A DNA stretch of 64,000 bases from Betaproteobacteria bacterium (GCA_027490755.1 JAIXXL010000021.1:25675-89674); one strand, 5' to 3'. Shown: positions 32,606 to 64,000, counted from the first letter of the stretch. The notes: a model not told the origin generated them from the sequence alone. A program made the numbers and translations.

Positions 32606-32610
32606 GACAC

Positions 32611-32641: not shown

Positions 32642-32644
32642 CAT

Positions 32645-32990: not shown

Positions 32991-33037
32991 TCGCCGAGAA
33001 GTCAGGCACGTAAAGTAGTTTTACGGCGATACCTTGA

Positions 33038-33961: not shown

Positions 33962-34189
33962 GACGGATTAAGTAATACATGTTGTGATTGGTCTATGGTG
34001 AAGTAGTAGTAGGCCCCAACCAGCACGACTTGGCATCATCAGGCAGCACCGATTGGCTCGACACATGATCGAGCACCGTAGGGAGCAACACAGAAGATGC
34101 TGCGCAGCTGCATGTACTGACCTGCGCTTTCCTGAAGGCCTCACAAATCGATGCCTGCGCCTTTTTGGTGGTGGGCTCAGGAGGTACAC

Positions 34190-36594: not shown

Positions 36595-36624
36595 ATCACC
36601 CCCGACGAACGCAAGGAGAACACA

Positions 36625-37986
36625 TTGGAAAAGTCCAACAATCCCGAGTTGGTAAAGCTCAGGGAGCAACTCACCGCCAAGGGCGTGAAGCACCTGTTTG
36701 CCAGCTATGTCGACATGCATGGCGTATCGAAGAGCAAGGTGGTGCCGATCGCGCACTTCGATCGCATGATGACGGGCTCCGAACTCTGCACGGGCGCGGC
36801 TCTGGAAGGCGTCCCGCAGGACGTCAGCGACGAAGAGGTGGCGGCCCACCCCGATCCCGCATCGTGCATGGTGCTGCCGTGGCAGCGCGACACGGCGTGG
36901 TTCGCCAGCGATCTGTGGTGCGAGGGCAAGCCCTTCGAGCCCTGCAGCCGCAACATCCTCGGCCGCCAGATGAAGAGGGCCAGCGACATGGGCTTCACCT
37001 TCAACCTGGGGATCGAGGCCGAATTCTTTGTCCTGAAGGACGACCCGGTGCATGGCTTCGTCCCCATGTCGGATCGCAAGCACCTGGAGAAGCCCGCCTA
37101 CGACGTCTCGCGCATGCTGGACAACATGGGCTGGATGAGCGAACTCGTCGCGGCCATGAACGAACTCGGCCTCGATGTCTATTCTTTCGACCACGAGGAC
37201 GGCATCGGCCAGTTCGAGGTGGACTTCAACTACTTCAACGCGCTCGCGATGTCGGATCGCTTCGTGCTGCTCCGCCTCATGGCACATGAGATCGCGAGAA
37301 AGCACGGCGGCTTTGCCACCTTCATGCCCAAGCCGTATGGTGACCGGGCCGGGAGCGGCGCTCATTTCAACATGTCGCTCGCCGACTCGAAGACCGGCAA
37401 GAACCTGTTCGCCGACGACAACGACCCGCGCAAGCTCGGCATCTCCAAGCTTGCCTATCAGTTCATCGGCGGTGTTCTGCGGCACCTGCCGGCGATCTGC
37501 GCCGTTGTCGCGCCGACGGTGAATAGTTACAAGCGACTCATCCTCAAGGGAAGCATGTCCGGCTTCACCTGGGCGCCAGTGTGGGCCTGCTACGGCAACA
37601 ACAACCGGACCAATACCGTGCGTATCCCGCGCGGAGGCGGCCGTGTGGAATTGCGCGCCGCAGACAGCGCCTGCAACCCCTATCTGGGCGCAGCCTTGAC
37701 CCTGGCAGCCGGCCTGGAGGGCATCGAGCAGGGGATCGACCCCGGCGATCCGCATCTTGAGAACATGTATCTGAAGTCGGATAAGGAGCTGAAGAAGCTG
37801 GGCGTCAAGCGCCTGCCCAAGACGCTGGAAGAAGCGGTGAATGCCTTCGAGGCCGATCCGCTGGCCGAGCAGGTCTTCGGCAAGAAGATGCGTGACACCT
37901 GGATCGACTTCAAGCGCGACGAGTGGCTCAGCTACCTCAACCACGTATCAGACTGGGAACGCGCCCGTTACCTGAAATTCTTCTGA
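36625..37986 (+). CDS. Glutamine synthetase family protein (gamma-glutamyl ligase-like)
   Basis: 453 aa, 'FASYVDMHGVSKSKVVP', 'NLGIEAEFFV', 'FMPKPYGDRAGSGAHFNMSL' and 'NNRTNTVRIP' are GS type I-like catalytic blocks. TTG start. Confidence 0.85.
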   Translation: MEKSNNPELVKLREQLTAKGVKHLFASYVDMHGVSKSKVVPIAHFDRMMTGSELCTGAALEGVPQDVSDEEVAAHPDPASCMVLPWQRDTAWFASDLWCEGKPFEPCSRNILGRQMKRASDMGFTFNLGIEAEFFVLKDDPVHGFVPMSDRKHLEKPAYDVSRMLDNMGWMSELVAAMNELGLDVYSFDHEDGIGQFEVDFNYFNALAMSDRFVLLRLMAHEIARKHGGFATFMPKPYGDRAGSGAHFNMSLADSKTGKNLFADDNDPRKLGISKLAYQFIGGVLRHLPAICAVVAPTVNSYKRLILKGSMSGFTWAPVWACYGNNNRTNTVRIPRGGGRVELRAADSACNPYLGAALTLAAGLEGIEQGIDPGDPHLENMYLKSDKELKKLGVKRLPKTLEEAVNAFEADPLAEQVFGKKMRDTWIDFKRDEWLSYLNHVSDWERARYLKFF

Positions 37987-49940: not shown

Positions 49941-51185
49941 TCAGGCGCCAAGACGCTGCCAGTGGCGGGCGATGCGGTGGGCGCCTTCGACACACTGCTC
50001 GAAGGGTGCCACCAGCGCGATACGGGCGTAGTTTGCGCCGGGGTTGATGCCGTGCGCCTCCCGTGCCAGGTAGCTGCCGGGCAGCAGCAGCACGTTCTCT
50101 TCCGCCAGCAGCGTCTTCACAAAGGTCTCGTCATCAACCGGCGTCGGTAGCCACAGATAGAAGCCGGCGTCCGGCCGCTCCACGCCAGTCACCGGGCCGA
50201 GGATGGGCAGCAGGGCGTCGAACTTGGCCTTGTACAGCGCGCGGTTCTCGCGCACGTGAGCCTCGTCGTGCCAGGCCGCCACGCTGGCAGCCGCCACCGC
50301 CTCGCTCATGGCGCAGCCGTGGTAGGTCCGGTAGAGCAGGAACTTCTTGATCAGCTCGTCTTCGCCGATGACATAGCCGGACCGCAGGCCCGGCGCGTTG
50401 GAGCGCTTGGACAGCGAGCCGAACACCAGCAGCTTGCGGTAGTCGCTGCGGCCCAGCTCCTGAGCTGCCTGCAGCGCACCCAGCGGCGGGTGCGCCTCGT
50501 CGAAGTAGATCTCCGAGTAGCACTCGTCGGAGGCGATGACGAAGCCGTAGCGGTCGGCGAGTGCGAACAGTGTCCGCCAGAAGTCGAGGCCTAGCACGGC
50601 GCCGGTGGGGTTGCCGGGTGAGCAGATGTAGAAGAGCTGGGTGCGCGCCCAGATGGCATCCGGCACGCTGCCGAGGTCTGGCACGTAGCCTGAGGCCGAG
50701 ACCGTGTTCAGGTAATAGGGCTCGGCGCCAGCCAGCAGGGCCGCACCTTCGTAGATCTGATAGAACGGGTTGGGCGAGATGACCACCGGCCGCACGCCGC
50801 CCTCGGGCGCTGGCCGCACCACCGCCTGCGCGATGGCGAACAGCGCCTCGCGGCTGCCGTTGACCGGGATCACCTGGCTGCCGATGTCCAACGCCGGCAG
50901 GCCATACCGGCGCTGCGCCCAGTCGGCGATAGCTTGGCGCAGGCTGGCCGGGCCTTGCGTGGTCGGGTAATTGGAAAGACTGCCCAGCCCCGCAGTCAAC
51001 GCCTCGCCTATGAGTGCCGGCGTGGCGTGGCGCGGCTCGCCGATGGACAGGTTGACGCGCGGCAGGTCGCTGCGTTCGGGGATGCCGGCCACCAGCGCCG
51101 AGAGCTTCTGGAACGGGTAGGTCTGAAGGGTGTCTAGGCGAGGGTTCAAAAACGTGTCCAGGTTGGGGCCGTGCCCGGGCTTCAC
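49941..51185 (-). CDS. dapC: Succinyldiaminopimelate aminotransferase (class I PLP aminotransferase)
   Basis: 'NPRLDTLQTYPFQKL', 'SPGNPTG', 'SLSKRSNAPGLRSG' (PLP Lys). A TTG at 51149 giving 'MNPRLD...' is a likely alternative start. Confidence 0.85.
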   Translation of the reverse strand: MKPGHGPNLDTFLNPRLDTLQTYPFQKLSALVAGIPERSDLPRVNLSIGEPRHATPALIGEALTAGLGSLSNYPTTQGPASLRQAIADWAQRRYGLPALDIGSQVIPVNGSREALFAIAQAVVRPAPEGGVRPVVISPNPFYQIYEGAALLAGAEPYYLNTVSASGYVPDLGSVPDAIWARTQLFYICSPGNPTGAVLGLDFWRTLFALADRYGFVIASDECYSEIYFDEAHPPLGALQAAQELGRSDYRKLLVFGSLSKRSNAPGLRSGYVIGEDELIKKFLLYRTYHGCAMSEAVAAASVAAWHDEAHVRENRALYKAKFDALLPILGPVTGVERPDAGFYLWLPTPVDDETFVKTLLAEENVLLLPGSYLAREAHGINPGANYARIALVAPFEQCVEGAHRIARHWQRLGA

Positions 51186-51246
51186 TCGTGATAGGGTCGG
51201 CGCGGTCCGGCCACCGGGGTGGGCCGGAGATTATAGGGGGGCGGGA

Positions 51247-52161
51247 GTGGTCGGCAAAGGCACTGGGGCGGGAGACGTCTCTTCCGGGCGTGAGGGGGCG
51301 GTTGTCGTGATCGGGGTGATGACCGGTGCCGCGGTCTGGGGCTTGGTCTGGTATCCCTACCGCGCGCTTGAGGCCGCCGGGTTCTCTTCTACCGCATCGA
51401 CGGCGCTGACCTACGCCATCAGTCTGGCCGTTGGCGTCGCGTTGTTCGGCACCCGGCTCGGCGAGCTGCGACGGCACTGGCGCGCGGTGCTGCTGATCGC
51501 GGTCATCGCCGGCTGGACCAATCTTTCCTATGTGCTCGGCATGGTCGGCGGCGAGGTCATGCGCGTGCTGCTGTTGTTCTACCTGGCGCCGCTGTGGACC
51601 GTGATTCTTGCGCGCATCGTGCTCGGCGAGCGGCTGACGCTGCAGTCCGGTGTACTGGTCGCGCTGTCGCTGGCGGGCGCCCTGATCATGCTCTGGCCGG
51701 AGCAGGGCCTGCCCCTGCCGGCCAATGCGGCCGAATGGTTCGGCGTGACCGGCGGCATGAGCTTCGCCAGCATGAACGTGCTGTCGAAGGGCGCAGACCA
51801 GGTGAGCATCGAGACCAAGTCGGTGGCGACCTGGGCAGGCGTCCTCATCGTGTCCGCCATCTGGCTGGCGGTGGGCGGGGGGGCGTGGGCGGTGCCGGCG
51901 GCCGGCTGGGCGGAGTGGCTGATCCTCGTCCTGCTTGGTGTGGCGATGTTTGCCAGCACGGTGATCATTCAACACGGCATCCAGCGGGTCCCGGCCAATA
52001 CCGCGATCGTTCTGTTCCTGATCGAGCTGGTGGCGGGTGCGGTGTCCGCGGCGTTGTTGTCGGACGAGATGCTGCGGCCACAGGACTGGCTGGGTGGGTC
52101 GCTGATCATCGGCGCGAGTCTGGTGGCTGCGGCGAGAAAGGTAGGGGGCAGACGAGATTGA
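51247..52161 (+). CDS. EamA/DMT-family transporter
   Basis: About 10 TM helices with two EamA-like halves. GTG 51247 was chosen so that TM1 ('AVVVIGVMTGAAVWGLVW') is retained. Start uncertain (track ORF begins at 51130). Confidence 0.7.
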   Translation: MVGKGTGAGDVSSGREGAVVVIGVMTGAAVWGLVWYPYRALEAAGFSSTASTALTYAISLAVGVALFGTRLGELRRHWRAVLLIAVIAGWTNLSYVLGMVGGEVMRVLLLFYLAPLWTVILARIVLGERLTLQSGVLVALSLAGALIMLWPEQGLPLPANAAEWFGVTGGMSFASMNVLSKGADQVSIETKSVATWAGVLIVSAIWLAVGGGAWAVPAAGWAEWLILVLLGVAMFASTVIIQHGIQRVPANTAIVLFLIELVAGAVSAALLSDEMLRPQDWLGGSLIIGASLVAAARKVGGRRD

Positions 52162-52241
52162 GTGGACATGAAGCGCAGGTGTCGCTCAGCCGGTATCTGA
52201 CCGGGCCCAGCCTTTTTGGCGCGTGCTCCGGGGCACTGGTC

Positions 52242-54836
52242 ATGATGCGTCTTTCGCCTCAGTTGATTGCCTGGCTGGGTGGTGTAGCCAAGCGCGTTGA
52301 TCTGGCGATTTGGCGAAAGACCCTAGAGCTCGTGCTCGGGCGAGCGCCTGAACCGGCGCGTCACGGGCCCGGCACTGCGCAGACTCTCCGCTGGATCGAC
52401 CACCTGCTCGCGCTCAATGATGCCCTGCGTCTTTACTACTGCATCGCACAGGAGCCAGCGCGCGTCCACGAGTTGTCCTCGACTCGCTTGGTCACTTTTG
52501 TGCCTTGTGATGATTCACAGTTGGGCTTGCGCGCCACTGCCGTATCGGTCGCCATGCTTCTCGACATGCTTGGGCCGCGCCTGGGCAATACCCGCTTCGG
52601 ATCGTTCCAACCACTGGATCACGGCTTGTCTGAACGTTTGCGTGAACGGGTCCGCGCCTGGCGCGAATGGGCCGAGGCCAACGCGCTGAACGTCAACGCC
52701 CGCTGGATCGCGCGCGAGGCTGTTGCGCGGGGCATCCCGTATCACCGTGAACCTGGATCCAAGCTGCTCGTTCGGCTCGGGCATGGTGCGAGCCAGCGGC
52801 GACTCAACGGCCCGTACGTGGACCGGGTGAGCAGCGTTGCCACGCATTGGTCAAATGACAAATGGCAGACCAGCAACCTCTTCGCCGCGCACGGCCTGCC
52901 GACGGCCGGGACCCGGTTGGTCGCCAGTTTCGAGCAGGCTCTGGCCCAGGCTAAGCGGTTCGGCTGGCCGGTCGTCGTCAAGCCGCGTTCTACTGACAAG
53001 GGCGTCGGCATCACCATCAACATCACCGACGAACCCGGCCTGCGGCAAGCTTTTGAGCATGCCACCAGATTTCGCGGGGGTGTCCTCGTGGAGCGCCATG
53101 TATCCGGATATGACCATCGCCTGCTGGTGGTCGGTGGCCGCTTTGTCGCCGCTGCTCTCCGACTGCCCGCACGCGTCGAGGGCGATGGCCAAAGGACCAT
53201 CGCGGAACTTGTCCATGCCCTGAATCTGGCCCGGTTTACGGGTCGGTTGCCAGGCGCCTACCGCTCTGAGGTGCCTGTGGTCCTGGACCATGAAGCGCTG
53301 CGGGTCCTCATAGCCCAGGGGTATGCGCCGGGTGACGTTCCAGCGGCAGGCGCCACGGTCACCCTTCGTGGGAACGCGAATCTTTCGACAGGCGGGAGTG
53401 CCGAGGACGTTACCGAGCAGGTTCACGTCGACAACCGCGCGCTGGCGGAGCAAGCGGCACGCCTCATAGGGCTGTGCACGGCAGGGCTCGACCTGCAGAC
53501 GAGCGATATCAGCCGGTCTTGGCGCGAGGTCGGCGGCGCTATCCTCGAGATCAACGCCGGCCCGGGTCTGCCGGTGCACCACTCGAGAACGTCCCGCTAC
53601 ACGGTACGAAAGGCCATCGTCGACGATCTGTTCCCGGCAGGGGCGACCGGTCGGATCCCCACCGCAGGTGTGACTGGCAGCATCGGCAAGACCACAACCT
53701 GCCGCATGCTTTCGAGCATCCTGAAGCATGCCGGGCACACGGTAGCGCTCACGGGCACCCAAGGCGCCTTCCTCGACGAGCGGCAGTTGCGAAAGGGCGA
53801 TCTGGCGGGGGGGCGGGCGGCACTGTCTCTGCTGCAAGACCCTGCGGCCACCGCCTGCGTCGCTGAGCTGGCGCGTGGGGGCCTCATCCGTAGCGGCTTG
53901 GGGTTGGACGTCCTCGATGTCGGTTCGGTGCTGAATGTGTACGACAACCATGTCGGGCTCGACGGCATCGAGACCCGCGAGCAGATGGCCCGCGTCAAGC
54001 AGTTGGTCGTCAGGCATGCCCGGCAGCTGGCGGTCCTGAACGCGGATGACCCGCTATGTCTGGCGATGAGCGATGGTATGGACCCGACCAGGGTGTGTCT
54101 GGTCAGCGAGGCGATGAGTCCGCGACTGACGGCGCACCTTGAGGCGGGTGGCATGGTCGCGACGATGCGCGACGCGGAACGAGGCCCGCTGCTCAGTTTG
54201 CAACGGGGCGCCGACATTCTGGGGGAGATGCCCGTCGCAGACATCCCGGCGACGTGGGGTGCCAGATTCCGCCCGGCGATGCTCAACGCACTGTTCGCTG
54301 CGGCTCTGGCTCACGGGCTCCGCGTACCGTTTCGGCATATCGAGACCGGCCTGGCGGCCTTTACGTCCGATTACGCCAGCAACCCGGGGCGGACGAACCG
54401 CATCTCGGGTCTGCCGTTCGATCTGTGGGTCGCGTGGTGCGATGGCCCCGAGGCGTGCACCGAGATGTCGCGCTTGATGTCCCGAATCGGGGGCGATGTG
54501 ATAGGGCATCTGGTGATCTATGCGGTTGGCAATCGCCCTGACGCCTTCACCCGCGCCTCAGCAGACGCTGTCGCCGGCGCTTTCGATCGCTACTACTGCA
54601 CCGACATGGAAGAAGACCGTCGCGGACGGGCGTTCGGCGAGGTCGCTGGGCTGCTGGCCGACAGCCTTCGGAAGGCAGGGGTCGCCGACTCCGCGATCGT
54701 CGTCGAGCCCTCCAGCAGTGCCGCCGTAAAAAGGGCCTTGGCCGAGATGCCAGCGGGGGGCATGTTGGTCATCCAGACCTACCATCCCGACACAGTCATG
54801 GCCTCGGTGCGTGCCATGTGGCCCGACGCCGCCTAG
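52242..54836 (+). CDS. Cyanophycin synthetase-like protein (N-terminal region + ATP-grasp + Mur-ligase-like domain)
   Basis: ATG-ATG at 52242 (in-frame GTG alternative at 52179). ATP-grasp blocks 'GWPVVVKPRSTDKGVGI', 'VLVERHVSGYDHRLLVVGGRFVAAALR' and 'AILEINAGPGLPVH'. Mur-ligase P-loop 'GVTGSIGKTTTCRML' and 'VAELARGGLIRSGLGLD...NVYDNHVG', as in CphA. The upstream part of the 1080-aa track ORF overlaps the EamA gene in another frame. Confidence 0.8.
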   Translation: MMRLSPQLIAWLGGVAKRVDLAIWRKTLELVLGRAPEPARHGPGTAQTLRWIDHLLALNDALRLYYCIAQEPARVHELSSTRLVTFVPCDDSQLGLRATAVSVAMLLDMLGPRLGNTRFGSFQPLDHGLSERLRERVRAWREWAEANALNVNARWIAREAVARGIPYHREPGSKLLVRLGHGASQRRLNGPYVDRVSSVATHWSNDKWQTSNLFAAHGLPTAGTRLVASFEQALAQAKRFGWPVVVKPRSTDKGVGITINITDEPGLRQAFEHATRFRGGVLVERHVSGYDHRLLVVGGRFVAAALRLPARVEGDGQRTIAELVHALNLARFTGRLPGAYRSEVPVVLDHEALRVLIAQGYAPGDVPAAGATVTLRGNANLSTGGSAEDVTEQVHVDNRALAEQAARLIGLCTAGLDLQTSDISRSWREVGGAILEINAGPGLPVHHSRTSRYTVRKAIVDDLFPAGATGRIPTAGVTGSIGKTTTCRMLSSILKHAGHTVALTGTQGAFLDERQLRKGDLAGGRAALSLLQDPAATACVAELARGGLIRSGLGLDVLDVGSVLNVYDNHVGLDGIETREQMARVKQLVVRHARQLAVLNADDPLCLAMSDGMDPTRVCLVSEAMSPRLTAHLEAGGMVATMRDAERGPLLSLQRGADILGEMPVADIPATWGARFRPAMLNALFAAALAHGLRVPFRHIETGLAAFTSDYASNPGRTNRISGLPFDLWVAWCDGPEACTEMSRLMSRIGGDVIGHLVIYAVGNRPDAFTRASADAVAGAFDRYYCTDMEEDRRGRAFGEVAGLLADSLRKAGVADSAIVVEPSSSAAVKRALAEMPAGGMLVIQTYHPDTVMASVRAMWPDAA

Positions 54837-54846
54837 CGCCTTCCCG

Positions 54847-56646
54847 TCAGCGTGCGTTCGCCGTGTCGGCGGCGTTGGCCTCGAGCATCGGCTCCAGCAG
54901 TTCCTTGAGGCGGCGGATGACGTTGGTATCCAGGTCAGCTTTGTTGCGCTGCCGCCCCGAGTGATCCTCCACCGTCGTGAAGCGGTCGACAGGGCTGCCG
55001 GTGCGCAGTAGTTCTTCGTTACTCACCACCAAGACGATGCGGTCGACGTCCGGGTCCAGCAGAAGGGCGGTGCAGCGTGCGTAAAGCCCTCGCGCTGTCA
55101 GGACCAACTCGGTTCGGTCGGGCCCGACCGTCCGGTCGTGGTCGGTGATGTAACAGCGCTCGTTGCTCGCGGCCGCCTCCGCGCGGATTTTCTCGGCGCG
55201 CTTCCAGGCCGACCCACCGCCAAGGATTGCATGGACAGGGATGCGGCCAGCGTGCGGAAGTACCGTCTCGAACATCTTGCGCAACAACGCTCGCGTACGC
55301 GGACCGCCGGACACGAAAGGTGCCGAGTTCACCTCGATGATGACGGCAGAGTTCTCGTGCCAAGGTATGGATGCGTCATCCGTCATAAGGTCCACACCGG
55401 CGATGTCCAGCCCCATCTGCCGCGCGGCCCGCACGCAGATCGCCGCGTTATCCGGGTGCAGATGGTCCGTTACGTTCCCAGATTCACCACCCCACTCTGT
55501 GGATTCTCGCGGGCGCAGGTAGACCCATCGTCCCTCAGTCGGCACAGACTCTACGGTGAGTCCCTGGCGGGAGAGTTCGGCCTCGGCGACCTTGTCGATC
55601 TGCGGCACATTCGATCGCTCCCACAATGGCTTGAGGCTCGCCTGGTGGTTTGCCAGCGTGATGAGCTCTTGTACCGTCGATGTCCCATCGCCCTGAATAC
55701 GTCTCGGAAAGCGCGTCACAGCAAACAGCACGCTGCCGAATCCCACCAGTACACGGTGGCAGATTCCGGGCGCCTGAGCTTCGACGAGGACCCGGCGCGA
55801 CAGTCTGTTTGCAGCCTCGAAGGCGGCGGCGAGGGTCGTCTCGTCGCCGATGCCGGTGGTCACGCCCTCTCCCCGGTCACGGTCGTTGGGTTTCACAACC
55901 ACGGGCCATCCGATCGCACGCGCGGCCTCAGCAGCTTGCTGCTCATCCAGAACCAGATGGTTCAAAGGCACAGGGATCCCAACCTGGCGCAAGATCTGCG
56001 TGGTCAGGGATTTTCTTTGAGCTGCACTTGCACCCAGATGAGAATCGGTGGAGACGTTGCTGCGGTGCAAGCGCATGGCTCTCGCTCCCCAGCCCAGGCA
56101 GTAGCGCGATGCTCCGAGGTGCAGGAAGGGAATGTCAGCGTCGTACGCGGCCCACAAAAGGCCGATCGAAGACTTGCCGCCTTCGCTCATGGTGCTTCGG
56201 ACCGGTTCGATGAACCCATCATGGATGCTCTTCTGCAGGCTCTCGTGGTCTCGTTCCGCAGCCGCGGGTTCAAGCCCCGCTTGCAGGATCCGTATGGCCA
56301 ACTTGTAGGCACTGTTGCGCTGCGCGGGCGGAAGAGGGTCGACGACCGGGACGCGGGCCACCACTTCGAACATGTCGTTCTCACCGGGCACGATCCGAAC
56401 GACAAGCCCGGCCTCGAAGACCGGTGCCCGGGCGGCCCGAAGGAGATGCGCGGCGAGCGCCAGCAGCCGATCGACGAGCAGCGCCGGGGTCGGGCTGGCG
56501 CCGGCCGACTCACCGGGCGGGAGACCAGTCCAACGCTCGAGCACTTGATCGAGTCTGGCTATCTCGCATGTGGTCTGGAGCGTGGCCTTGTCGACCCGGA
56601 GCGTGATGGTTCGCGTCCTTTGGCGGAGGCCGGGTAGGTAGCTCAT
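54847..56646 (-). CDS. CphA2-like ATP-grasp protein (CphA-type N/ATP-grasp regions, vestigial Mur-ligase region without P-loop)
   Basis: 599 aa. 'GKSSIGLLWAAYDADIPFLHLG...CLGWGARAMRL', 'GWPVVVKPNDRDRGEGV', 'VLVEAQAPGICHRVLV' and 'AVIIEVNSAPFV' are paralogous to 52242-54836. At the position of the P-loop it reads 'ILGGGSAWKRA'. Confidence 0.75.
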   Translation of the reverse strand: MSYLPGLRQRTRTITLRVDKATLQTTCEIARLDQVLERWTGLPPGESAGASPTPALLVDRLLALAAHLLRAARAPVFEAGLVVRIVPGENDMFEVVARVPVVDPLPPAQRNSAYKLAIRILQAGLEPAAAERDHESLQKSIHDGFIEPVRSTMSEGGKSSIGLLWAAYDADIPFLHLGASRYCLGWGARAMRLHRSNVSTDSHLGASAAQRKSLTTQILRQVGIPVPLNHLVLDEQQAAEAARAIGWPVVVKPNDRDRGEGVTTGIGDETTLAAAFEAANRLSRRVLVEAQAPGICHRVLVGFGSVLFAVTRFPRRIQGDGTSTVQELITLANHQASLKPLWERSNVPQIDKVAEAELSRQGLTVESVPTEGRWVYLRPRESTEWGGESGNVTDHLHPDNAAICVRAARQMGLDIAGVDLMTDDASIPWHENSAVIIEVNSAPFVSGGPRTRALLRKMFETVLPHAGRIPVHAILGGGSAWKRAEKIRAEAAASNERCYITDHDRTVGPDRTELVLTARGLYARCTALLLDPDVDRIVLVVSNEELLRTGSPVDRFTTVEDHSGRQRNKADLDTNVIRRLKELLEPMLEANAADTANAR

Positions 56647-56782
56647 CGAGATCTTCGCGCGGGTTCGATATAGATACGCCGCAGGATACTTGCTCGCGAC
56701 GCGGCTTTCGAGTTAGCCTGCGGATGCGATGGGGGTCTCGCCCCGCAAAGTAGTTTTTCGCCAACTCTTGAGGGAACCACAG

Positions 56783-56881
56783 ATGCAAAATCAAGCTCCG
56801 CTCGCCCCGTATGGCGCGCTTCGTTTCACTCCGATCTCTACCAAAGTCGGTGGTGGCAAGGGTCTCGACAAGCCCGCCTGA
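56783..56881 (+). CDS. Unannotated 32-codon ORF (candidate precursor/primer peptide)
   Basis: 'gaggga'-N7-ATG. Translation 'MQNQAPLAPYGALRFTPISTKVGGGKGLDKPA'. It ends 20 nt before the HExxH ORF and is too short for the ORF track. Only positional evidence supports it. Confidence 0.3.
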   Translation: MQNQAPLAPYGALRFTPISTKVGGGKGLDKPA

Positions 56882-56901
56882 TCCCCGAGTGGTCCTCCAG
56901 T

Positions 56902-58014
56902 TTGCCATTGCTCGAACCTTGCTTTGCTGAAGGTGCTTCGCTTGACGCGGACATAAACGCCGCGCTTCGTGAAGGGGTGGCATGGTGTGCGCAACAAGCC
57001 GGGCTTGACCCGGCTTGTTGTTTTGATGGCGGGCCGATGCCGTCTGCGTGGTGCGGCAGCCCGGTCGATTTCGCTGCCTATTACGATTGGGCCATAGCCT
57101 TGACGTCGGCCGTCGACGATCCGCCGGCTCCCTGGGAGCCGGCTTCTTCTTCCGGTTCTGATGCAGCGGCGCGGCGTTGGCGTCCCTTTCTGCAACATTT
57201 CTCCGCCGCGTTCGCCTCGTCGGCCCGACCCGCGACCGATCACGCGACCCGTAACGTGTTGGCCGCGCCCGCCGTCGTCACCTTGGGCGAGCCTTGGTTC
57301 GACGCCGCAGCGAGCGAGCGCATCGTCCGCTGGTTGGACCTTGAGCCTGACAACGCCATGGCGCTGGTCGGCCTCAGCGCCGCTGAACTCCACGAGGCTC
57401 GCAGCGATGTCGAGCGCGCATTGGCTGCGTTGGCGGCCTGGGCACCCGGTTTCCACGGCGAGTTCGTCGCGGTGGTGCGGCGGTTGATCGTCGTCAAGCC
57501 GTCTGGCTCGCAGCGGATGACCTTCCGTGCCGCATCTTCGTTTGCGCTGTGGGGCGCTCTGGCCGGCAACCAGCAGGTGCACCCGCGCTGGTGGGACTGG
57601 GTGCCCACCTTGGTCCATGAGACGGCGCACTCGATCCTGTTCGCCCTGTCGCGACACGCCCCACTGGTCGAGAACGACCCAGCGGAGCGTTACGCCTCGC
57701 CCTTGCGCGATGATCCTCGGCCGATCGACGGCATCTACCACGCAGCATTTGTCTCGGCGCGCGAGGCGGTGGCTTTGGGCGAGTGTCTGCAGGCGATCGA
57801 TGCTGGCGTGGCACTTCCCGGAGTGGGTGATGATGAAGTCAGCGCTGTGCGCGCCGACTTTGCCGCGGTGCGGGAGAACTCGGTGCGGTCTTTTCATGAC
57901 TGCGTCGCCGTGCTCGAGCGGCATGCGCGGTTGAGCCCGTCTGGTCGCGACATACTTGATACGCTGCGACGGGAGCTTGAGGCGTTGGTCGGTGCGGCGG
58001 TCCACGCTGCTTAG
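56902..58014 (+). CDS. HExxH-motif domain protein (peptide beta-hydroxylase-like family)
   Basis: 370 aa, TTG start. The central 'PTLVHETAHSILF' HExxH motif sits in a helix-rich protein with no signal peptide, so it resembles the HEXXH-motif domain family rather than a classical zincin protease. Confidence 0.65.
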   Translation: MPLLEPCFAEGASLDADINAALREGVAWCAQQAGLDPACCFDGGPMPSAWCGSPVDFAAYYDWAIALTSAVDDPPAPWEPASSSGSDAAARRWRPFLQHFSAAFASSARPATDHATRNVLAAPAVVTLGEPWFDAAASERIVRWLDLEPDNAMALVGLSAAELHEARSDVERALAALAAWAPGFHGEFVAVVRRLIVVKPSGSQRMTFRAASSFALWGALAGNQQVHPRWWDWVPTLVHETAHSILFALSRHAPLVENDPAERYASPLRDDPRPIDGIYHAAFVSAREAVALGECLQAIDAGVALPGVGDDEVSAVRADFAAVRENSVRSFHDCVAVLERHARLSPSGRDILDTLRRELEALVGAAVHAA

Positions 58015-58087
58015 CTTCGCCAGCCAGCCCCGAGGCTGATCAAGCCCGTGCGGGTTGACTTGCCGCGGCAGCCCTAGCCCGCCAACC

Positions 58088-58999
58088 ATGAACATCCTGC
58101 TCACCGGGGCATCGGGGTATTTCGGCAGCGCGCTTTTGGCCGAACTCTTGCCGGCCCACCGCGCGAACCTGCACCGGGTGACCGTGCTAGTTCGCGGGGA
58201 CCAGGCAGCGCAGTCGGGTCGGTCAGACGTCCCCACGCTGCGCGAGATGGACTTGCACGCGTCGACGCTCCGCTCGCGAGGCATCGATACCGTCATCCAT
58301 CTTGCTGCAGCGCGCTCGTCCACAGATATCCCAGCGCAGAACCGCTCCCTGGAGTTGAGCCGCAGACTGCTCGAAGCCTCAGCGGGTGCAGATGTGAGGC
58401 GCCTCGTCCTCGCGTCCAGTCACGCCGTGTACGGGACACAGCCAACGCCGTGGGACGAGGATGTGACTGTTCCCGCGCCCGTGACCTTGTACGGCTTGGC
58501 AAAACGCGCAACCGAGTTGATGCTCGATGCCAGTCCGGTGTCGACGGTCTCGGCCCGTCTGGCCAAGCTGGTCGGGCCGTCGCCGAGGTTCCGCGTTCAG
58601 CCAAGCGAACTCCCCCACGTCCTCTTGTCGTACGCCCTCAAGGGAAAGCTGGTTGTGATGCGCAACCCTAAACAGCGTTTCGATTTCCTCGACGTGCGCG
58701 ATGCAGTGCAGGGGGTCATCGCGATCGCCAACCACTCTGGGGAGGGGTTGCCAGGTGCGATCAACTTGGGTTCAGGTGGCGTGGTGATGAGTGCGGAGGT
58801 TGCCGCAATGGTCGATGACGTGTTCCGACCAATGGGTTTTCCCCTGCGTTATCAATTCGAGACCGAGAGTACGCCAGCACCGAGGGACTTCGGGATGTCC
58901 ATCAAACTTGCCCACCGTTGCTTGGGGTGGAGCCCGGAAATCGCCCTGCGGATGACGCTTGAAGGTATTGCAGGGCAATGGGCAATACGTGCCCTCTAA
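58088..58999 (+). CDS. NAD-dependent epimerase/dehydratase (extended SDR)
   Basis: ATG 58088: 'MNILLTGASGYFGSAL' (Rossmann GxxGxxG) and catalytic 'YGLAK' (YxxxK). Confidence 0.8.
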   Translation: MNILLTGASGYFGSALLAELLPAHRANLHRVTVLVRGDQAAQSGRSDVPTLREMDLHASTLRSRGIDTVIHLAAARSSTDIPAQNRSLELSRRLLEASAGADVRRLVLASSHAVYGTQPTPWDEDVTVPAPVTLYGLAKRATELMLDASPVSTVSARLAKLVGPSPRFRVQPSELPHVLLSYALKGKLVVMRNPKQRFDFLDVRDAVQGVIAIANHSGEGLPGAINLGSGGVVMSAEVAAMVDDVFRPMGFPLRYQFETESTPAPRDFGMSIKLAHRCLGWSPEIALRMTLEGIAGQWAIRAL

Positions 59000-59038
59000 A
59001 CCCCTGGACCGTGACGCTGGCCCGTCCTGACGACCCTA

Positions 59039-62000
59039 TCAATGAACCCAAGTGCGCAACAGTTCGTGCAGCCCGGTCAGCCTGCTCCGGGTAAGCAGCG
59101 AGGCTTTGTCGGAGTACGCATGCACCTGCTCATCGACGAACTCGACCCGATCGATCTGTCCCAGGGGCATCCCTCTGGCGAGGAACTCGTCGGTCTGCAC
59201 CACGACCACCAGCGCCCCGACATCCTTTCTTAGAACCAAGGCTCGGGTTCGCTCATATAAGACCCTTCCCGACGCCATTGCATGCGTTCGGCCTGACGGT
59301 GCAATTGTACGTTCTGCGCTGCTCAAGAACGCCGCGAGCCCTTTTCTGCAGAGTTCTTGCCATCGTGTCTCCGCCGCGCTCCACGCCGCGTCCCCACCCA
59401 CAAAAGCCTCCACAGGTATCCGGCCTTTGTTCACCAGCAGTCGGTCGAGATACTCGGGCAGGTAGCGGCGCGAGATCTCTCCGCCACCCAGCAAGGGCGC
59501 GTAGTTCACCTCATTGATGACCGCACCGTTCTCGTACCATGGCCGGGTGATGTCGGGGCTGATGATGTCCACGCCAGCGACCTCCAGGCTCATGAGCGCG
59601 GTGGCATCGAGCGCGATCCTCAGGTTGTCCGGATGAAGGTCGTGCGTAACTTCCTCGTCGACGCCGCCCCATGCCGAGGTCTCGATGCGTCGCAGACGCA
59701 CAAAGCGCCCCTTGCCGGGGACCGACTCGGCTAGCCAGCCGTCGCGCTTTAGGGTCTGCACGGCAAGTTCGTCCAGGGCGATCGGGTTGCACTGCCACGG
59801 CGGGATGAGCGACTGTCGCGCCCGTTCTCGCTCGACCAGCTCCCGTACTGTCGATTCGCCGTCCCCGTAGACGCCGATTGGGAGTCTGCGCACGGCATAC
59901 AGCAGCCGACCCGCGGTGATGAACAGCCGATGGCAAACCCCCTCGACCTGCTGCTCGACCAGTACCTGCTTGCCTCGTGATAGCTTGAGCGCTGCCGCGA
60001 ACGCAGCGTCGAGTGTCTCTGCATTGACATCGACGCTGACGCCTTCGCCACGCTCGCGGTCGGCCGGTTTCACGACCACCGGGTAACCCAGCCGGTCGGC
60101 GATCTGCTGCGCTTGTTCGCGTGCGCGCGCAACCCCGTGCCGCGGCGCTGGCAGACCTGCTTCGCGCAACAACTGCGCGGTCACGCGCTTGTTCTCTGTC
60201 AGCGCCATGCCGAAGACCGAATCCCGGTCGGTCGTGCTCCGGTCGATCCTCCGTGCCCGTTCACCCCAGCCCAATTGGTAGATGCCGCCGCTGATCGGTC
60301 GGAACGGTACGCCAGTCTCCCGCGCGACACGGAGCACCTCGAACGTGGATTTCCCGGCAGATACAGCTTGGGCGTGGCGCTTTACCAAGCTTTCATAGAT
60401 CTTTGCAAAGAACCCTTCGCGGAGCGAGGCATCTGCAGGGTCGGCGTTGTTCGCCCATTTGGCGACGGCGGATGCCTGCTTGAGAACATCCTGCAACACG
60501 CTATTTGGCGCCGCCTCGGTACCATTCAGACGGATAGTGGCTTGCCAACGCCCAGCGCGTGCGGTGTCAGGCTGACAGGTGAGGACCATCGGCTCATCAA
60601 ACATCGGCACTCGGACCGCATGCAGCAGGGCCAAGGCAAACCGCAAGACGCCGTGCAGCCAGAATCGGGCCCGCTCCTCTGTCCCCGAGGGAACCGTCTG
60701 GGGTTCCTCTGCGCGACCCGCATGGCCCGCGAGCAGTGTCAGCCAAGCCTGGAGTCTTAAGGCGTCTGGCTGGGCAGGGGGCTCGAAAGCCACATTCAGC
60801 GTTCCATTGGTGGCGACATGCGGCGCAGATGCCATTGGGGTCTTGCCACTCGTGGCCCCGGTCAAGTACTTGTGGAGCAGGGCCTGCACCGCATCGTGCT
60901 GGATCTTCCCTTGCTCGTTGCGGGGTATGCGATCAACCACCACTGCAGCGTGCAGCGCATGTGCCCCCAATCGTTCTTTCACATGCTCGACCAGGTGCGG
61001 CGGAGCGGCATCCATGGCGCGCCTGAGTTCGACAAGTGCCACAGGGACGTCCTGTAGAACAGAGTGCCGTATTGGCATGACGTGCGCGTCAGCGACAGCG
61101 GGGTGTGTCCGTAGGCACTCCTCCACCTCGGCGGGGTAGAGGTTGACGCCGCTGATGATCATCATGCCGTCGGCTCGACCGCGGTGGACGAGTTGCCCGC
61201 CAGGGGTCAACAAGCCTATATCGCCCGTCGCAAACCAGCCCTTCTTGAAAACGCGGCGGTTGTGTTCTCCCTCACCCACATAGCCGCAGATCGCAGCCGG
61301 GGAGTGGATCTCGATGAGGCCTTCTTGTCCATCAGGTAAGCGCTTGCCGTGCGCATCGACGACCCGCAAGCGGAAACCCGGGAGGGGGCTGCCCACGCCA
61401 CCGGGAAGCGTAAAAACATCCTCTGGCCTGGTTATCGTCGATGTGTGTGTCTCGTTGGTGCCGTAGAACAGGAACAGGTTGGGTGTCAGGCGGTCACGGA
61501 TCCTCTGGCGCAGGCCCATCGATACTGTTGAGCCTCCGATCATCAGGGCGTGCAGTCCAGCCAAGGGGCCCTTTCGCTCATTTTCAGGCTTCCTCAGCAT
61601 CAGCTCGGCGTGGAAGGCCGTGCCGTAGACAGCAGAGACTTGGCCAGACGTGACGAGAGACTCGAAATCGAACGCACCTGGTTTGCCAAGAAACACGCTG
61701 GCGCCTATGGCAAAGGCCTCGAGGCAACGTTGTTTGGCGGCATAGAAATGCATGCTCACCAAGCTGAGCAATGAGTCTTCGGGCCCGTATGGGAGCCACT
61801 TTGGCCCCAGGTTTGCGCGGGTGAGCTGTTGTCGATGGGTCACCGGTATGACCTTCGGCACGCCTGTGGACCCAGACCCGGTCACGTAGAGCCACGGTTG
61901 GTCGGCCACGTCTTCAGCGGCCGGTGGGACAGAGTCAGGGTCACCCGAGAGGGTCCCGAAGTCGATCGTGGGTAGGCCGTATGCCTTTGATTGAGGGGTG

Positions 62001-62356
62001 GCGTCGCCAGTCAGGATCGTGGCGGCGCTCGTGAGTGACAGCTGGCGTCGTGCATGTTCTTCGGGAGTCGAACTTGCGAGGCTCAGCGAGGTTGCACCAA
62101 TGTGCGCGAGTGCGAGCATTGCGACCAGATGGTCCAAAGGATCGTCCAGCGCTATGGCTACGGTACTACCCGTAACAATCCCGTATGCAAGCAGTCCGGA
62201 AGCGGTGGCGGCGACCCGCTGTTGCAATTCCACATAGGTGAGACGTTGGTCCGAGGTGGCGACAGCCGCCACGCCGGGATGCTGAATTGCCTCCCGGGAG
62301 AGGAGGCTTACGATGTTCTGTGACACTAGGGGGCTCTGCGGTGGTCGGCTAGGCAA
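59039..62356 (-). CDS. Fusion protein: ANL-superfamily adenylate-forming domain + CphA-like N/ATP-grasp module
   Basis: N-terminal approx. 500 aa: 'YVTGSGSTGVPKVIPVTH', 'FYGTNE', 'GWFATGDIG', 'GRADGMMIISGVNLYPAEVEE' and 'PRNEQGKIQ' (AMP-binding core motifs). C-terminal approx. 580 aa: 'GKSTFEVLRVARETGVPF...QLGWGERARRI', 'GYPVVVKPADRERGEGV', 'VLVEQQVEGVCHRLFI', 'AVINEVNYAPLL', then a P-loop-less region 'FVGGDAAWSAA'. An alternative GTG start at 62326 overlaps the GT stop (tagtg). Confidence 0.8.
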   Translation of the reverse strand: MPSRPPQSPLVSQNIVSLLSREAIQHPGVAAVATSDQRLTYVELQQRVAATASGLLAYGIVTGSTVAIALDDPLDHLVAMLALAHIGATSLSLASSTPEEHARRQLSLTSAATILTGDATPQSKAYGLPTIDFGTLSGDPDSVPPAAEDVADQPWLYVTGSGSTGVPKVIPVTHRQQLTRANLGPKWLPYGPEDSLLSLVSMHFYAAKQRCLEAFAIGASVFLGKPGAFDFESLVTSGQVSAVYGTAFHAELMLRKPENERKGPLAGLHALMIGGSTVSMGLRQRIRDRLTPNLFLFYGTNETHTSTITRPEDVFTLPGGVGSPLPGFRLRVVDAHGKRLPDGQEGLIEIHSPAAICGYVGEGEHNRRVFKKGWFATGDIGLLTPGGQLVHRGRADGMMIISGVNLYPAEVEECLRTHPAVADAHVMPIRHSVLQDVPVALVELRRAMDAAPPHLVEHVKERLGAHALHAAVVVDRIPRNEQGKIQHDAVQALLHKYLTGATSGKTPMASAPHVATNGTLNVAFEPPAQPDALRLQAWLTLLAGHAGRAEEPQTVPSGTEERARFWLHGVLRFALALLHAVRVPMFDEPMVLTCQPDTARAGRWQATIRLNGTEAAPNSVLQDVLKQASAVAKWANNADPADASLREGFFAKIYESLVKRHAQAVSAGKSTFEVLRVARETGVPFRPISGGIYQLGWGERARRIDRSTTDRDSVFGMALTENKRVTAQLLREAGLPAPRHGVARAREQAQQIADRLGYPVVVKPADRERGEGVSVDVNAETLDAAFAAALKLSRGKQVLVEQQVEGVCHRLFITAGRLLYAVRRLPIGVYGDGESTVRELVERERARQSLIPPWQCNPIALDELAVQTLKRDGWLAESVPGKGRFVRLRRIETSAWGGVDEEVTHDLHPDNLRIALDATALMSLEVAGVDIISPDITRPWYENGAVINEVNYAPLLGGGEISRRYLPEYLDRLLVNKGRIPVEAFVGGDAAWSAAETRWQELCRKGLAAFLSSAERTIAPSGRTHAMASGRVLYERTRALVLRKDVGALVVVVQTDEFLARGMPLGQIDRVEFVDEQVHAYSDKASLLTRSRLTGLHELLRTWVH

Positions 62357-63582
62357 TGCTGTACCCGCTCCATCAGCCGGTCGCCATTGCTTTGTAGATC
62401 ATGAAGTTTTCGCCCGGCCCCTCGAGCGCGGTCAACGTGGCGCCCATACACGGCCTCATCGTCAAACAACTCCTCCAGTCGTTGCGAAACATGCTCGACG
62501 ATTTCTTGGGGCACTAACCTTAAGTAGGGGGCTTCCTGGTACTCGGGCGGGAAGGCTATTGTCTCGCCGCCCTCCCCAAGTATCTCCGGGATACCGCCGG
62601 AGGTGCTGCCGATAACCGGGATACCATTCAGCAAAGCCTCAACGACCACGCGGGGACCGCTGTCCCACCAAAGGCTGGGGGCCAGAAGCACGCGAGCGCG
62701 GCCGTAAACCGGGCGCATATCCCGGGTGTTTGGGGTTAGGAGGACGTTTCGGACCTCATCCGGATCGATGCCCGTCTGGCTGGCGACGCTTTCAAGTAAG
62801 GCCAGCCATGTCGCGCGCGTGTCGACCACCTCAAACGGTATGTCTGGTCGACGCTGCGCCATGTGCAGGATCAGTTGAGCGACGAACACGCCTCCTTTGG
62901 CAGGTATCGGGTTGATAAACAGAACCCGCTCCCGCCTGTGAGCGTTCGCTGTGACCGGTGCCGGGTCTACGAAGGTCCCGAGCGGAATCATGTGGTAGCC
63001 CTCGCGCTGGCGATACATCTCAGCCGTTGCGCGGGTGTCGGTGAAAATGAAGTCGACATCTCTACACCATGTTGTTCCCCGGTTGTTGCCGTGCATTAGG
63101 AAGACACCTACGGCGATGTTCCTGCGGTGTGCCTCGTTCGCCGTCAACAGTGTGATGAGGGAGTTGTCGAAGAACAAGACGAGATCTGGCGAGTCTGCAT
63201 CGAGCAGGCGGCAGTACTCATCGAACCAGCGTTGCTCCTCGAAAGAGAGCATCAGCCGGCGCTGGCTGCGCTCGGTGACAAGGAGGCGGTGTCGTAGCAA
63301 GCCGTCGGGCACCTCGACGAATCTCCCTTTCTGTGCAAGCAGCCTTGGCCACAACTCTGCGCGACTCGCCATGCCCTGGGGGTTGACGAAAACCGTCGCG
63401 CCAATTGCCGCAACGTCGCATCCACGCAGTGCCAATTGGTTGAGGCACTCCCGGACCATCAGGCCGGCTCCGTTTGCGGTGTCGAGGAGCGTATTGGGGG
63501 AGGCCCAGAGGATTCTGATTGGCGGACTCATCTTGGATCCAACAACCGCAGCGGCGAGACTGTATCTAGCAGATTCAATCAC
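62326..63582 (-). CDS. Glycosyltransferase family 1/4 (GT-B)
   Basis: C-terminal 'LLAPSLWWDSGPRVVVEALLNGIPVIGSTSGGIPEILGEGGETIAF' is the GT1 EX7E-type region. The probable ATG start at 63531 gives 'MSPPIRILWASPN'; the track ORF starts at GTG 63582. Confidence 0.8.
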   Translation of the reverse strand: MIESARYSLAAAVVGSKMSPPIRILWASPNTLLDTANGAGLMVRECLNQLALRGCDVAAIGATVFVNPQGMASRAELWPRLLAQKGRFVEVPDGLLRHRLLVTERSQRRLMLSFEEQRWFDEYCRLLDADSPDLVLFFDNSLITLLTANEAHRRNIAVGVFLMHGNNRGTTWCRDVDFIFTDTRATAEMYRQREGYHMIPLGTFVDPAPVTANAHRRERVLFINPIPAKGGVFVAQLILHMAQRRPDIPFEVVDTRATWLALLESVASQTGIDPDEVRNVLLTPNTRDMRPVYGRARVLLAPSLWWDSGPRVVVEALLNGIPVIGSTSGGIPEILGEGGETIAFPPEYQEAPYLRLVPQEIVEHVSQRLEELFDDEAVYGRHVDRARGAGRKLHDLQSNGDRLMERVQHCLADHRRAP

Positions 63583-63754
63583 GGCCCCGGTCCGATGTGG
63601 CAGTGGGAGGACTTGCCCGCGCTACTGTGCCTCTGGATGGGGCTCCTCGCAAGGCGTCGGGCAGATACTCACGATATGCCTGGTGAGGAACGGGCAAAGC
63701 AAGACTGACGAACGAGACGCGGTATCCTGAGCCCCGAAACGGCGCAAACACCTT

Positions 63755-64000
63755 ATGCACCCTCCCATCAATTCACCCGATCGTCCCGCCTTTATCATCT
63801 GGACGATGCAGCGAACTGGTGGTACCAACTTCGCCCGTTGGCTGGATGGCTTCACCGGTAAACCCTTAGCCTTGCATGAACCGTTTATGGAGACACGAAT
63901 CCTCGGTCATGCCTCACGGGGTTGGAGACTAAACCAAAATGTAAGCATGCTTGAGGATGCTTTGTGCGCCGCACTGCACCAGCGACCTAGTTTAAAACAT
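63755..64000 (+). CDS. Hypothetical protein, 5' part only (possible sulfotransferase-like P-loop); continues beyond window
   Basis: ATG 63755, and the frame is open for 82 codons to the window edge. 'RPAFIIWTMQRTGGTNFARWL' is reminiscent of a PAPS-binding 5'-PSB loop. It is missing from the ORF track because no stop is reached. G+C is lower here. Confidence 0.35.
   Translation, partial: MHPPINSPDRPAFIIWTMQRTGGTNFARWLDGFTGKPLALHEPFMETRILGHASRGWRLNQNVSMLEDALCAALHQRPSLKH

Follow-up and report, generated by a model that had tools for sequence, protein, structure and literature searches.

To our knowledge, no role other than cyanophycin polymerization has been described for CphA-type enzymes. In the ATP-grasp (G) domain of CphA1, the residues E215, H267, N394 and R458 bind the cyanophycin primer and aspartate, and CphA2 is distinguished by an architecture of N domain, G domain and the core of an M domain (resembling Mur ligases) without its P-loop or M-lid (PMC9427784). 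The members of the aKG-HExxH family are hydroxylases of the precursors of peptides that are made on the ribosome and modified after translation (RiPPs), with one backbone-cleaving case (PMC12636437, PMC13060819, PMC12707348). RiPPs as such are already a known kind, and so are their ATP-grasp enzymes and the aKG-HExxH hydroxylases. Here, a stretch of 64,000 nucleotides (nt) from a Betaproteobacteria bacterium (GCA_027490755.1, JAIXXL010000021.1:25675-89674; "the window") was analyzed, which comes from a 125-kb contig in a freshwater metagenome-assembled genome (MAG) of 2.06 Mb and 79% completeness. Within it, a biosynthetic island between eamA and thiG brings together CphA-like ligases, an aKG-HExxH protein and a peptide of 32 amino acids (aa). 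We consider it likely (probability of roughly 0.6) that the conserved core of this island, namely a peptide with a LAPYG-x8-(T/A)KVG unit, the HExxH hydroxylase and two CphA-like ligases named NG-A and NG-B, is a RiPP-like cassette and part of a RiPP-like hybrid pathway. The core genes are given below, with positions counted from the first nucleotide of the window.

56783-56881, plus strand: precursor-type peptide gene, 32 aa, MQNQAPLAPYGALRFTPISTKVGGGKGLDKPA, with one LAPYG-x8-TKVG unit and GAGGGA 7 nt upstream.
56902-58014, plus strand: aKG-HExxH-type peptide beta-hydroxylase of 370 aa, motif HETAH (TIGR04267, 89.2 bits, cut-off 40).
54847-56646, minus strand: NG-A, a CphA-like ligase of 599 aa with N domain, G domain and truncated M-core, without the M-domain P-loop (NF010623, 251 bits, positions 157-565).
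59039-62356, minus strand: a protein of 1,105 aa in which an ANL adenylating domain (aa 1 to ~495) is fused to NG-B (aa ~500 to 1,105).

Two features of RiPP clusters are found here, a conserved precursor peptide gene beside modifying enzymes and a recognized RiPP-modifying family (TIGR04267). The first-pass annotation, which was made from the sequence alone and proposed a polymer made by the CphA-like proteins, had treated the 32-codon open reading frame (ORF) as a bystander, but it is a conserved precursor-type peptide gene that recurs with HExxH and NG genes in distant lineages. In the comparison with the related locus L094, codons 1-23 of the peptide gene show 15 synonymous and 2 non-synonymous differences, and the 120 nt upstream of it cannot be aligned (36/120), with the neighboring genes at ~78% nt identity. 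On this substitution pattern, next to unalignable intergenic DNA, the 32-codon ORF is under strong purifying selection. A profile of five peptides was searched against 1.84 billion representative proteins and gave 54 matches at E<=1e-3 (best 7e-25). Units were aligned from 47 of the matched clusters, which hold 68 of them, with 1-3 per peptide and a spacing invariant at 8 residues; the consensus of the 17-residue unit is L-A-P-Y-G-(S/A)-(M/L)-K-F-x-x-L-(A/S)-(T/A)-K-V-G. Over the whole family, LAPYG-x8-(T/A)KVG occurs in 1-4 tandem copies per peptide, and the peptide of an alphaproteobacterial MAG (L029) has four copies of PLAPYGxLxNLxLSTKVGG. It is this internal unit that is conserved and not the C-termini of the peptides. 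Three profile matches (P0205, P0212 and P0214) were discarded as non-members, as their 4-7 near-identical repeats (e.g., NPLAPYGAR) in long ORFs look like translated DNA repeats. In peptides of a second type, several (A/S)K(I/V)G repeats come after an LxKLFGFKI(V/L) head, and the element common to both types is (S/T/A)-K-(V/I)-G. The six peptides scanned, from both types, matched no Pfam or NCBIfam family.

The HExxH gene starts 20 nt past the end of the peptide gene. In favor of the long ORF, the N-terminus of the protein is conserved over 44 residues in L029 as well as in L094, and its only relative in the PDB is ChlH (8S5F, 2e-7), with which the HExxH motif and a downstream His are aligned. 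It had been taken for a tailoring enzyme of a polymer; that it belongs to a hydroxylase family is correct, but the family is that of the RiPP-type peptide hydroxylases. Homologues of this protein adjoin peptide genes in nine other loci. None was found in 6 congeners or in 34 genomes of the same order, and of 399 other genomes of the class, three carry a homologue and none matches the LAPYG-type peptide profile. The cassette system is rare in reference genomes.

The neighborhood comparison, which covers loci with enough DNA around the peptide gene, revealed that in unrelated Proteobacteria the peptide gene adjoins the same HExxH subfamily and usually also a CphA-like gene of ~600 aa:

L096 (94% nt identity): eamA, NG-A, peptide, HExxH, NG-B, thiG, the minimal form.
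L094/L095 (~78% nt identity): as L096, with additional methyltransferase, unknown and TIM-barrel genes.
L097/L098 (Nitrotoga-like, HExxH 87% identical to that of Candidatus Nitrotoga fabula): NG, two peptide genes, HExxH.
L114 (metagenome contig): NG, peptide, HExxH.
L109 (metagenome contig): peptide, then HExxH.
L029 (Alphaproteobacteria): peptide ORF between an NG-type ligase gene and an HExxH gene (38% identical to the HExxH protein of the window).
L023, L015 and G084/L105: peptide gene of the second type in the same position by NG and HExxH.
L104: Lys/Gly-rich peptide of the second type, then a lone HExxH gene.

Orthologues of NG-A adjoin the peptide and HExxH genes in L096, L094, L097, L029, L114, L023, L015 and L105. 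The minimal four-gene form spans ~5.2 kb and contains no full-length CphA, and its free-standing NG-B is orthologous to the NG half of the fusion protein of the window (70% aa, ~78% nt identity). ANL-NG, NG, HExxH and peptide genes are found together again in L015, a Comamonadaceae MAG. In addition, in two contigs that end inside the gene, a Mur-ligase-like ORF lies directly 3' of a three-unit peptide gene (L110:549-953 and L111:564-986), with a P-loop region 51% identical to residues 460-524 of the full-length CphA-like protein of the island (CphA864, see below). In the survey of co-occurrence proposed earlier, the peptide/HExxH/NG core recurs, and the genes for CphA864, the ANL domain, the glycosyltransferase and the short-chain dehydrogenase/reductase (SDR) are variable. 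The hybrid class may have a scattered distribution among Proteobacteria of freshwater and others, with Candidatus Nitrotoga among them, a suggestion to which we give somewhat less than even odds.

The assembly contains four CphA-like modules, every one of them at this locus. Besides NG-A and NG-B, they are:

52242-54836, plus strand: CphA864, a divergent full-length CphA1-like ligase of 864 aa with N, G and Mur-ligase-like M domains (P-loop SIGKTTT).
Window-equivalent 68866-70671, minus strand, past trmB: NG601, a fourth CphA-like module of the NG type, 601 aa (G000:C3:94540-96345; L001:7541-9346).

Between NG601 and the island lie thiG and trmB, and NG601 adjoins genes for a trypsin-like peptidase and a SoxYZ fusion. 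The NG-A gene is divergent from the peptide gene and convergent with that of CphA864. Several statements of the first-pass annotation were borne out by these proteins: an 864-aa protein with the M-domain P-loop and a convergent 599-aa protein without it are both present, the sequence blocks described as shared among three paralogous ATP-grasp modules are real (the paralogues being, in fact, four), and the modules are of the CphA type, given that the best NCBIfam and PDB matches of all of them are CphA1 and not RimK, Ddl or carboxylases. None reaches the cut-off of the curated cyanophycin synthetase model (581, 251, 225 and 218 bits on NF010623, cut-off 877; NG modules 200-251 on curated CphA1 models), and the cphA1 genes of congeners, used as a control, score 956-972 bits, above the CphA1 cut-off. 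A full-length match to the curated model had been anticipated for CphA864 and partial ones for the other two; the partial ones were obtained, but in CphA864 the match covers model positions 142-862, with the N domain unmatched and a score below the cut-off (also on TIGR02068, 576 bits, cut-off 850). CphA864 is not an orthologue of the canonical cphA1 products of the congeners (36-38% identity) and is absent from the islands of the relatives L094 and L096. Its M domain is recognized (Mur_ligase_M, 3.5e-14) and the ATP-site residues K499, T500, T522, E558 and R731 are kept.

In the fusion protein, both subdomains of the ANL superfamily are present (AMP-binding PF00501, 9e-44, and AMP-binding_C PF13193, 1.7e-11, at aa 21-484), followed by the NG-B match (NF010623, 218 bits, aa 658-955). 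The PDB and NCBIfam matches of the ANL part are divided equally among enzymes that activate fatty-acyl, aryl or amino-acid substrates, and no equivalog cut-off is reached. One query retrieved more than 500 homologues of the ANL-NG fusion, mostly in Proteobacteria, and most of them are fused likewise, some with a FemAB_like N-terminus in place of ANL. Such fusions of NG-B-type modules to FemAB_like (PF04339) are found in L108:5586-8648, P0015, P0028 and P0045, and the one of L108 lies within an array of three further CphA-like/ATP-grasp genes and a GT2/GT1 protein.

The functional residues were mapped onto SuCphA1/TeCphA1 numbering. The residues for ATP, Mg and acyl-phosphate (K220, K261, R309, R323, D431, E450 and N452) are kept in the NG modules as well as in CphA864. 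In the NG modules, E215, which binds the primer Arg, is replaced by Ser, Lys or Ala (Ser in NG-A), the P-loop residue H267 by Arg (P-loop DRxRGEG, also in NG-A), and N394, which binds the substrate Asp, by Ser or Thr (Ser in NG-A); G456 and R458 (oxyanion and Asp carboxylate) are lost, with Phe at position 456 of NG-A. CphA864 keeps N394 (loop NANLSTGG) and G456 and carries the changes E215H, H267K and R458P. Thus, 0/4 of the CphA1 primer/Asp-binding set (E215, H267, N394 and R458) are kept in the NG modules, and only N394 in CphA864. NG-A, NG-B and NG601 have neither an M-domain P-loop, which is replaced by GGxxAW, nor an M-lid. The AlphaFold model of NG-A (mean predicted local distance difference test score, pLDDT, 89.3) matches CphA1 in Foldseek (7WAE/7LGN, E~1e-38) and superposes over its full length on CphA1 as well as, over both full lengths, on CphA2 (7TA5; template-modelling scores TMq 0.67 and TMt 0.69), so that the proposed comparison with CphA1 and CphA2 structures held for both. 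By phmmer, CphA1 is the nearer of the two to the NG modules, with 167 bits against 129 bits for CphA2.

A tree of G domains (107 rows, quick IQ-TREE run with Shimodaira-Hasegawa-like approximate likelihood ratio test support, SH-aLRT, no CphA2 sequence included) placed CphA864 as the basal sister of the CphA1 clade (90) and the NG super-clade separately (95). All nine NG genes located by peptide and HExxH genes and all eight ANL- or FemAB-fused modules fall within one clade with a support of 99, in which the fused modules form one group (98) and the NG-A rows one clade, with NG601 as sister of NG-A. Since the NG modules form a clade of their own and have lost the cyanophycin-binding residues, their truncation is probably independent of that of CphA2 and their substrate probably a different one. 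A 645-aa ORF by cphA1 in L056, considered as a CphA2 stand-in for the tree, turned out to be unrelated. As a separate observation, a Thermomicrobiales MAG contains four CphA1-clade G domains in tandem within ~8 kb (L057:4439-12264).

Based on these observations, a pathway can be proposed in which CphA-like (and Mur-ligase-like) ligases add amino acids, independently of a template, to the ribosomal peptide as their primer or acceptor, following hydroxylation or cleavage by the HExxH protein, a bridge between RiPP and cyanophycin chemistry. We put this forward tentatively, as a proposal more apt to fail than to hold. In the RiPP-like pathway considered likely above, the peptide would be made on the ribosome and serve as the substrate. 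The HExxH enzyme would hydroxylate a residue of the conserved unit or, as PflC/PosC can, cleave beside it. With ATP, the NG ligases would then generate acyl-phosphates and attach amino acids or other building blocks (amines/acids) to the peptide. Since the unit has no conserved acidic residue, the site would be either a Lys or hydroxyl nucleophile or a newly created carboxylate. In the first case, the invariant Lys (or a hydroxyl) would be the nucleophile for an activated free acid. In the second, a C-terminal carboxylate exposed after TKVG would be extended in the way the CphA G domain extends its primer and RimK/LysX extend polypeptides. The ANL, GT4, SDR and sulfotransferase-like genes and CphA864 are plausible sources of acyl, sugar, sulfate and Asp/Arg-type groups, perhaps on the same molecule and perhaps on others. 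A predicted complex of NG-A with the 32-aa peptide (with ATP and Mg) had a score of 0.00 and was not used as evidence.

Several observations weigh against a RiPP-like cassette and should be considered jointly. No Asp/Glu position is conserved among the 68 aligned units, and therefore a carboxylate for ATP-grasp activation is not evident on the peptide. In Candidatus Nitrotoga fabula, an orphan peptide gene with two LAPYG units (WP_213036159.1; L113:10001-10177 of GCA_905221025.1 and G441:C2:21100-22140) is flanked by phoX and an ABC transporter gene and lies a long way from the HExxH/NG cluster. Some of the ligases are also met alone: an overlapping pair of glycosyltransferase and ANL-NG fusion genes occurs without peptide or HExxH in L011/L012 (68% aa identity) and in Novosphingobium (L013, 55%), and NG-A-like genes of Sulfurimonas, Pseudomonas, Stutzerimonas and Poseidonibacter have no HExxH or recognizable peptide gene within 10 kb. 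In addition, the groups in the tree were set after the contexts had been viewed, and similarity to a single query determined which loci were sampled, which makes the grouping descriptive. Finally, the sequencing runs that contain the locus are freshwater-metagenome DNA, with no RNA run among them.

The modular character of the island has to be considered next, together with the remaining genes:

51130-52161, plus strand: EamA-family transporter (Pfam EamA, 2.9e-18), with a core-genome-like G+C content at third codon positions (GC3) of 0.84.
58055-58999, plus strand: SDR of the NAD-dependent epimerase/dehydratase family, 314 aa (Pfam Epimerase, 3.7e-32).
62326-63582, minus strand: GT4-family (GT-B) glycosyltransferase of 418 aa (Glyco_trans_1_4, 2.1e-10; Glycos_transf_1, 4.4e-9).
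63755-64000, plus strand: 5' part of a gene for a 277-aa Stf0-like sulfotransferase candidate, continuing to window-equivalent 64588 (L001:2430-3263), GC3 0.55.

Every gene that the first-pass annotation had listed, from the EamA transporter to the partial ORF, is present at the coordinates it gave, and the anticipated matches to AMP-binding, HExxH, Epimerase and Glycos_transf_1 families were all obtained. The eamA gene is the conserved left flank of the island and borders the cassette of L094 and that of L096, too (78% aa identity); its product is a possible exporter. The SDR gene lies on the same strand as the peptide and HExxH genes, after a gap of 40 nt, and its product reaches no NCBIfam equivalog cut-off. 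Its position is taken by a methyltransferase gene, an unknown gene and a xylose-isomerase-like TIM-barrel gene in L094 and by nothing in L096, so it seems to be a variable tailoring gene. The GT4 gene is upstream of the fusion gene and overlaps it by 31 nt. The ORF at 63755 has no Pfam match and scored 0.97 to Stf0 sulfotransferase clusters in a feature search, which is taken as a lead only; a homologue (37%) lies upstream of the glycosyltransferase gene in L011. A low-GC tail starts with this ORF and ends at window-equivalent ~66800 (L001:2430-5447; GC 0.48-0.55), where the Stf0-like ORF is followed by genes for a Sulfotransfer_2 protein, a 221-aa unknown protein and another sulfotransferase-like protein, and then by thiG and trmB. 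One of these three sulfotransferase-like genes was recognized by the feature search alone. The island thus extends beyond the window edge to thiG (window-equivalent 67234). Two long minus-strand ORFs past the window (348 and 245 aa) were rejected as genes, as the opposite strand is that of thiG and trmB. A scan for promoters and terminators gave nothing above the shuffled expectation.

Regarding composition, the flanking eamA, thiG and trmB have a GC3 of 0.84-0.85, the island genes mostly 0.70-0.76, and the last four 0.48-0.56, so that three layers are visible across the region. The lowered GC3 relative to the flanks had been noticed before, and the composition suggests that the island was horizontally acquired. 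We regard the region as a horizontally acquired mosaic biosynthetic island and the eamA-thiG site as a variable hot spot, of which this genome carries the most elaborate version: compared with the minimal form, the full-length CphA1-like gene, the SDR gene, an ANL domain fused to NG-B, the GT4 gene and three sulfotransferase-like genes are extra. Elsewhere in the window, two further patches of lower GC were observed. The first (5835-9424, 0.55-0.57) holds response-regulator/nucleotide-cyclase and bestrophin-like genes beside three tRNA genes (9133-9424, minus strand) and may be another acquired segment; the second (32530-37300, 0.57-0.62) starts from a tRNA gene (32530-32602) and holds TetR, amino-acid permease and creatininase genes.

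It could be argued from this that three unrelated systems were juxtaposed in a recombination hot spot and make no joint product, i.e., CphA864 for a storage polymer, the peptide/HExxH/NG genes as a RiPP system, and GT4, ANL-NG and the sulfotransferases acting on an envelope glycan or glycolipid. Stf0-type enzymes sulfate glycolipids, which would fit the last of these. The three compositional layers and the other gene contents found at the same eamA-thiG site in related contigs point in the same direction, as do the modules found separately elsewhere, with the cassette alone in L096 and the glycosyltransferase and ANL-NG genes without it in L011 and L013. In L011, thiG (86% nt identity) directly follows the fusion gene and NRPS-like genes (NRPS, nonribosomal peptide synthetase) replace the cassette; neither the HExxH profile nor the peptide motif was matched in scans of the other NG-A-like loci (L017-L028) or of L011, L013, L014, L016 and L107, which carry the fusion. 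The cluster is therefore a mosaic of modules that also occur apart, and the single product of all seven genes that had been envisaged is not supported. However, the minimal cassette and the ANL fusion share a component, their NG-B modules being orthologous (70% aa), all of ANL-NG, NG, HExxH and peptide are together again in L015, and a Mur-ligase-like gene adjoins the peptide gene in L111. Considering both sides, we hold a purely accidental neighborhood of three systems to be unlikely.

The interpretation originally offered for the locus, in which the ATP-grasp paralogues make a modified cyanophycin-like poly- or oligo-amino acid without a ribosomal template or primer, the tailoring genes decorate it, and the small ORF is irrelevant, must be weighed against the cyanophycin context. 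No cyanophycinase (TIGR02069) is found in this 79%-complete assembly nor in 6 congeners, and no cyanophycinase-type gene is present among the called ORFs scanned over the 36 kb of contig past the window, in which iadA/iaaA were not searched separately. It had been argued that the missing cyanophycinase sets the locus apart; none was indeed found, but the argument is weak, since all seven genomes of the genus lack one and four of the congeners have a canonical cphA1 (956-972 bits; e.g., among G001-G005, G003:C10:30088-34784 and G005:C22:4980-9688). In three of these four, a second cphA copy of ~710 aa is adjacent, and a fifth congener has near-threshold cphA pieces only (650 and 614 bits); the cphA1 pair is not in the assembled 79% of this genome. 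Cyanophycinase is found in 658/1614 RefSeq genomes with CphA1 (PMC10206079). Because congeners with cphA1 and most CphA1 genomes also lack the enzyme, its absence is not what makes the locus unusual. The island is not a cyanophycin storage locus, and the expectation that no cyanophycinase lies past the window edge was confirmed in the ORFs scanned. A polymer is still suggested by the Asp-binding loop and the intact M-domain ATP site retained in CphA864, by the NG fold, which is that of CphA2, a polymerase, and by arrays of several CphA-like paralogues with glycosyltransferase genes and without peptide or HExxH (L108, L011, L013 and L057). Nevertheless, it passes over the conserved peptide gene at the center of the locus, a small ORF which is under strong purifying selection and recurs with HExxH and NG across classes; the HExxH family is known only from ribosomal peptide substrates, the cyanophycin/Asp-binding residues are lost in the NG modules, and no full CphA is encoded in the minimal island. 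A polymer made independently of the peptide is thus quite improbable.

Least probable of all, and by our estimate a long shot, is that the peptide serves as a recycled carrier or scaffold on which amino acids are ligated, tailored (by hydroxylation, oxidation or glycosylation) and released, as in the LysW/LysX or pearlin pathways, for even if LysW is loaded by ATP-grasp ligases that belong to this superfamily (3VPB and 3VPD being among the fold matches), the tailoring genes vary around a constant peptide/ligase core, and the minimal island shows no clear leader/core split or dedicated protease, the peptide C-termini are not conserved and the internal unit is, multi-unit precursors are typical of products rather than of carriers, and all that is repeated in peptides of the second type is the short (A/S)K(I/V)G element.

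If the RiPP-like reading of the cassette is true, a large sister clade (>500 homologues from one query) would represent new chemistry for the CphA fold, together with a new RiPP-type family whose repeatable unit is very short (17 residues). Annotating these genes as "cyanophycin synthetase" or "AMP-binding protein" probably misleads. In the searchable literature, no CphA-like ligase with a ribosomal peptide, no such peptide family and no ANL-NG fusions are described, and under the name CphA3 only carbapenemase papers are found. The minimal four-gene form is small enough for direct expression, and Candidatus Nitrotoga fabula provides a representative from a culturable lineage.

Compared with CphA1 (Synechocystis 7LG5, Trichodesmium 7WAC), CphA864 has the same N-G-M order and all four modules share the G fold and the catalytic residues. 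However, no module reaches the curated cut-off, the primer/Asp-binding residues are replaced in the NG modules and partly in CphA864, and the modules adjoin a ribosomal peptide gene and a peptide hydroxylase gene, whereas the true cphA1 of the congeners is elsewhere. With CphA2 (7TA5, 8FXH), the NG modules share a size of ~600 aa and the N, G and M-core domains without P-loop and M-lid, but they are closer to CphA1 by sequence, form their own clade and lack the cyanophycin-binding residues. The RiPP hydroxylases of the aKG-HExxH type (ChlH/ChlBH, 8S5F; PflC/PosC; BipH/BpmH; the nitrilobacillin enzyme) resemble the system described here in the TIGR04267 assignment, in the HExxH motif with its downstream His and in the adjacent short precursor; in contrast to them, no radical S-adenosylmethionine enzyme, multinuclear non-heme iron-dependent oxidative enzyme (MNIO) or nitroreductase is the partner here, but a CphA-like ATP-grasp ligase, and the precursor families match no curated model. 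In graspetides of the microviridin type, a ribosomal peptide with several core repeats is likewise found by ATP-grasp ligases, although in their cores conserved Asp/Glu residues form side-chain esters and amides (macrolactones or macrolactams) with Thr/Ser/Lys, for which the unit here has no conserved acidic residue, and the ligases here are not of the small MdnB/MdnC type but of the CphA type, with N and M-core domains. ATP-grasp ligases of the RimK, LysX/ArgX-LysW and PGM1 types extend ribosomal polypeptides, and their substrates end in conserved acidic residues. They act on a ribosomal polypeptide and are thus a precedent for C-terminal amino-acid addition. RimK (5ZCT) and LysX/ArgX (3VPD/3VPB) are among the fold matches of NG-A, with only the ATP-grasp core shared (TMq ~0.3), and, unlike in the RimK/LysX-type systems, the peptide termini here vary.

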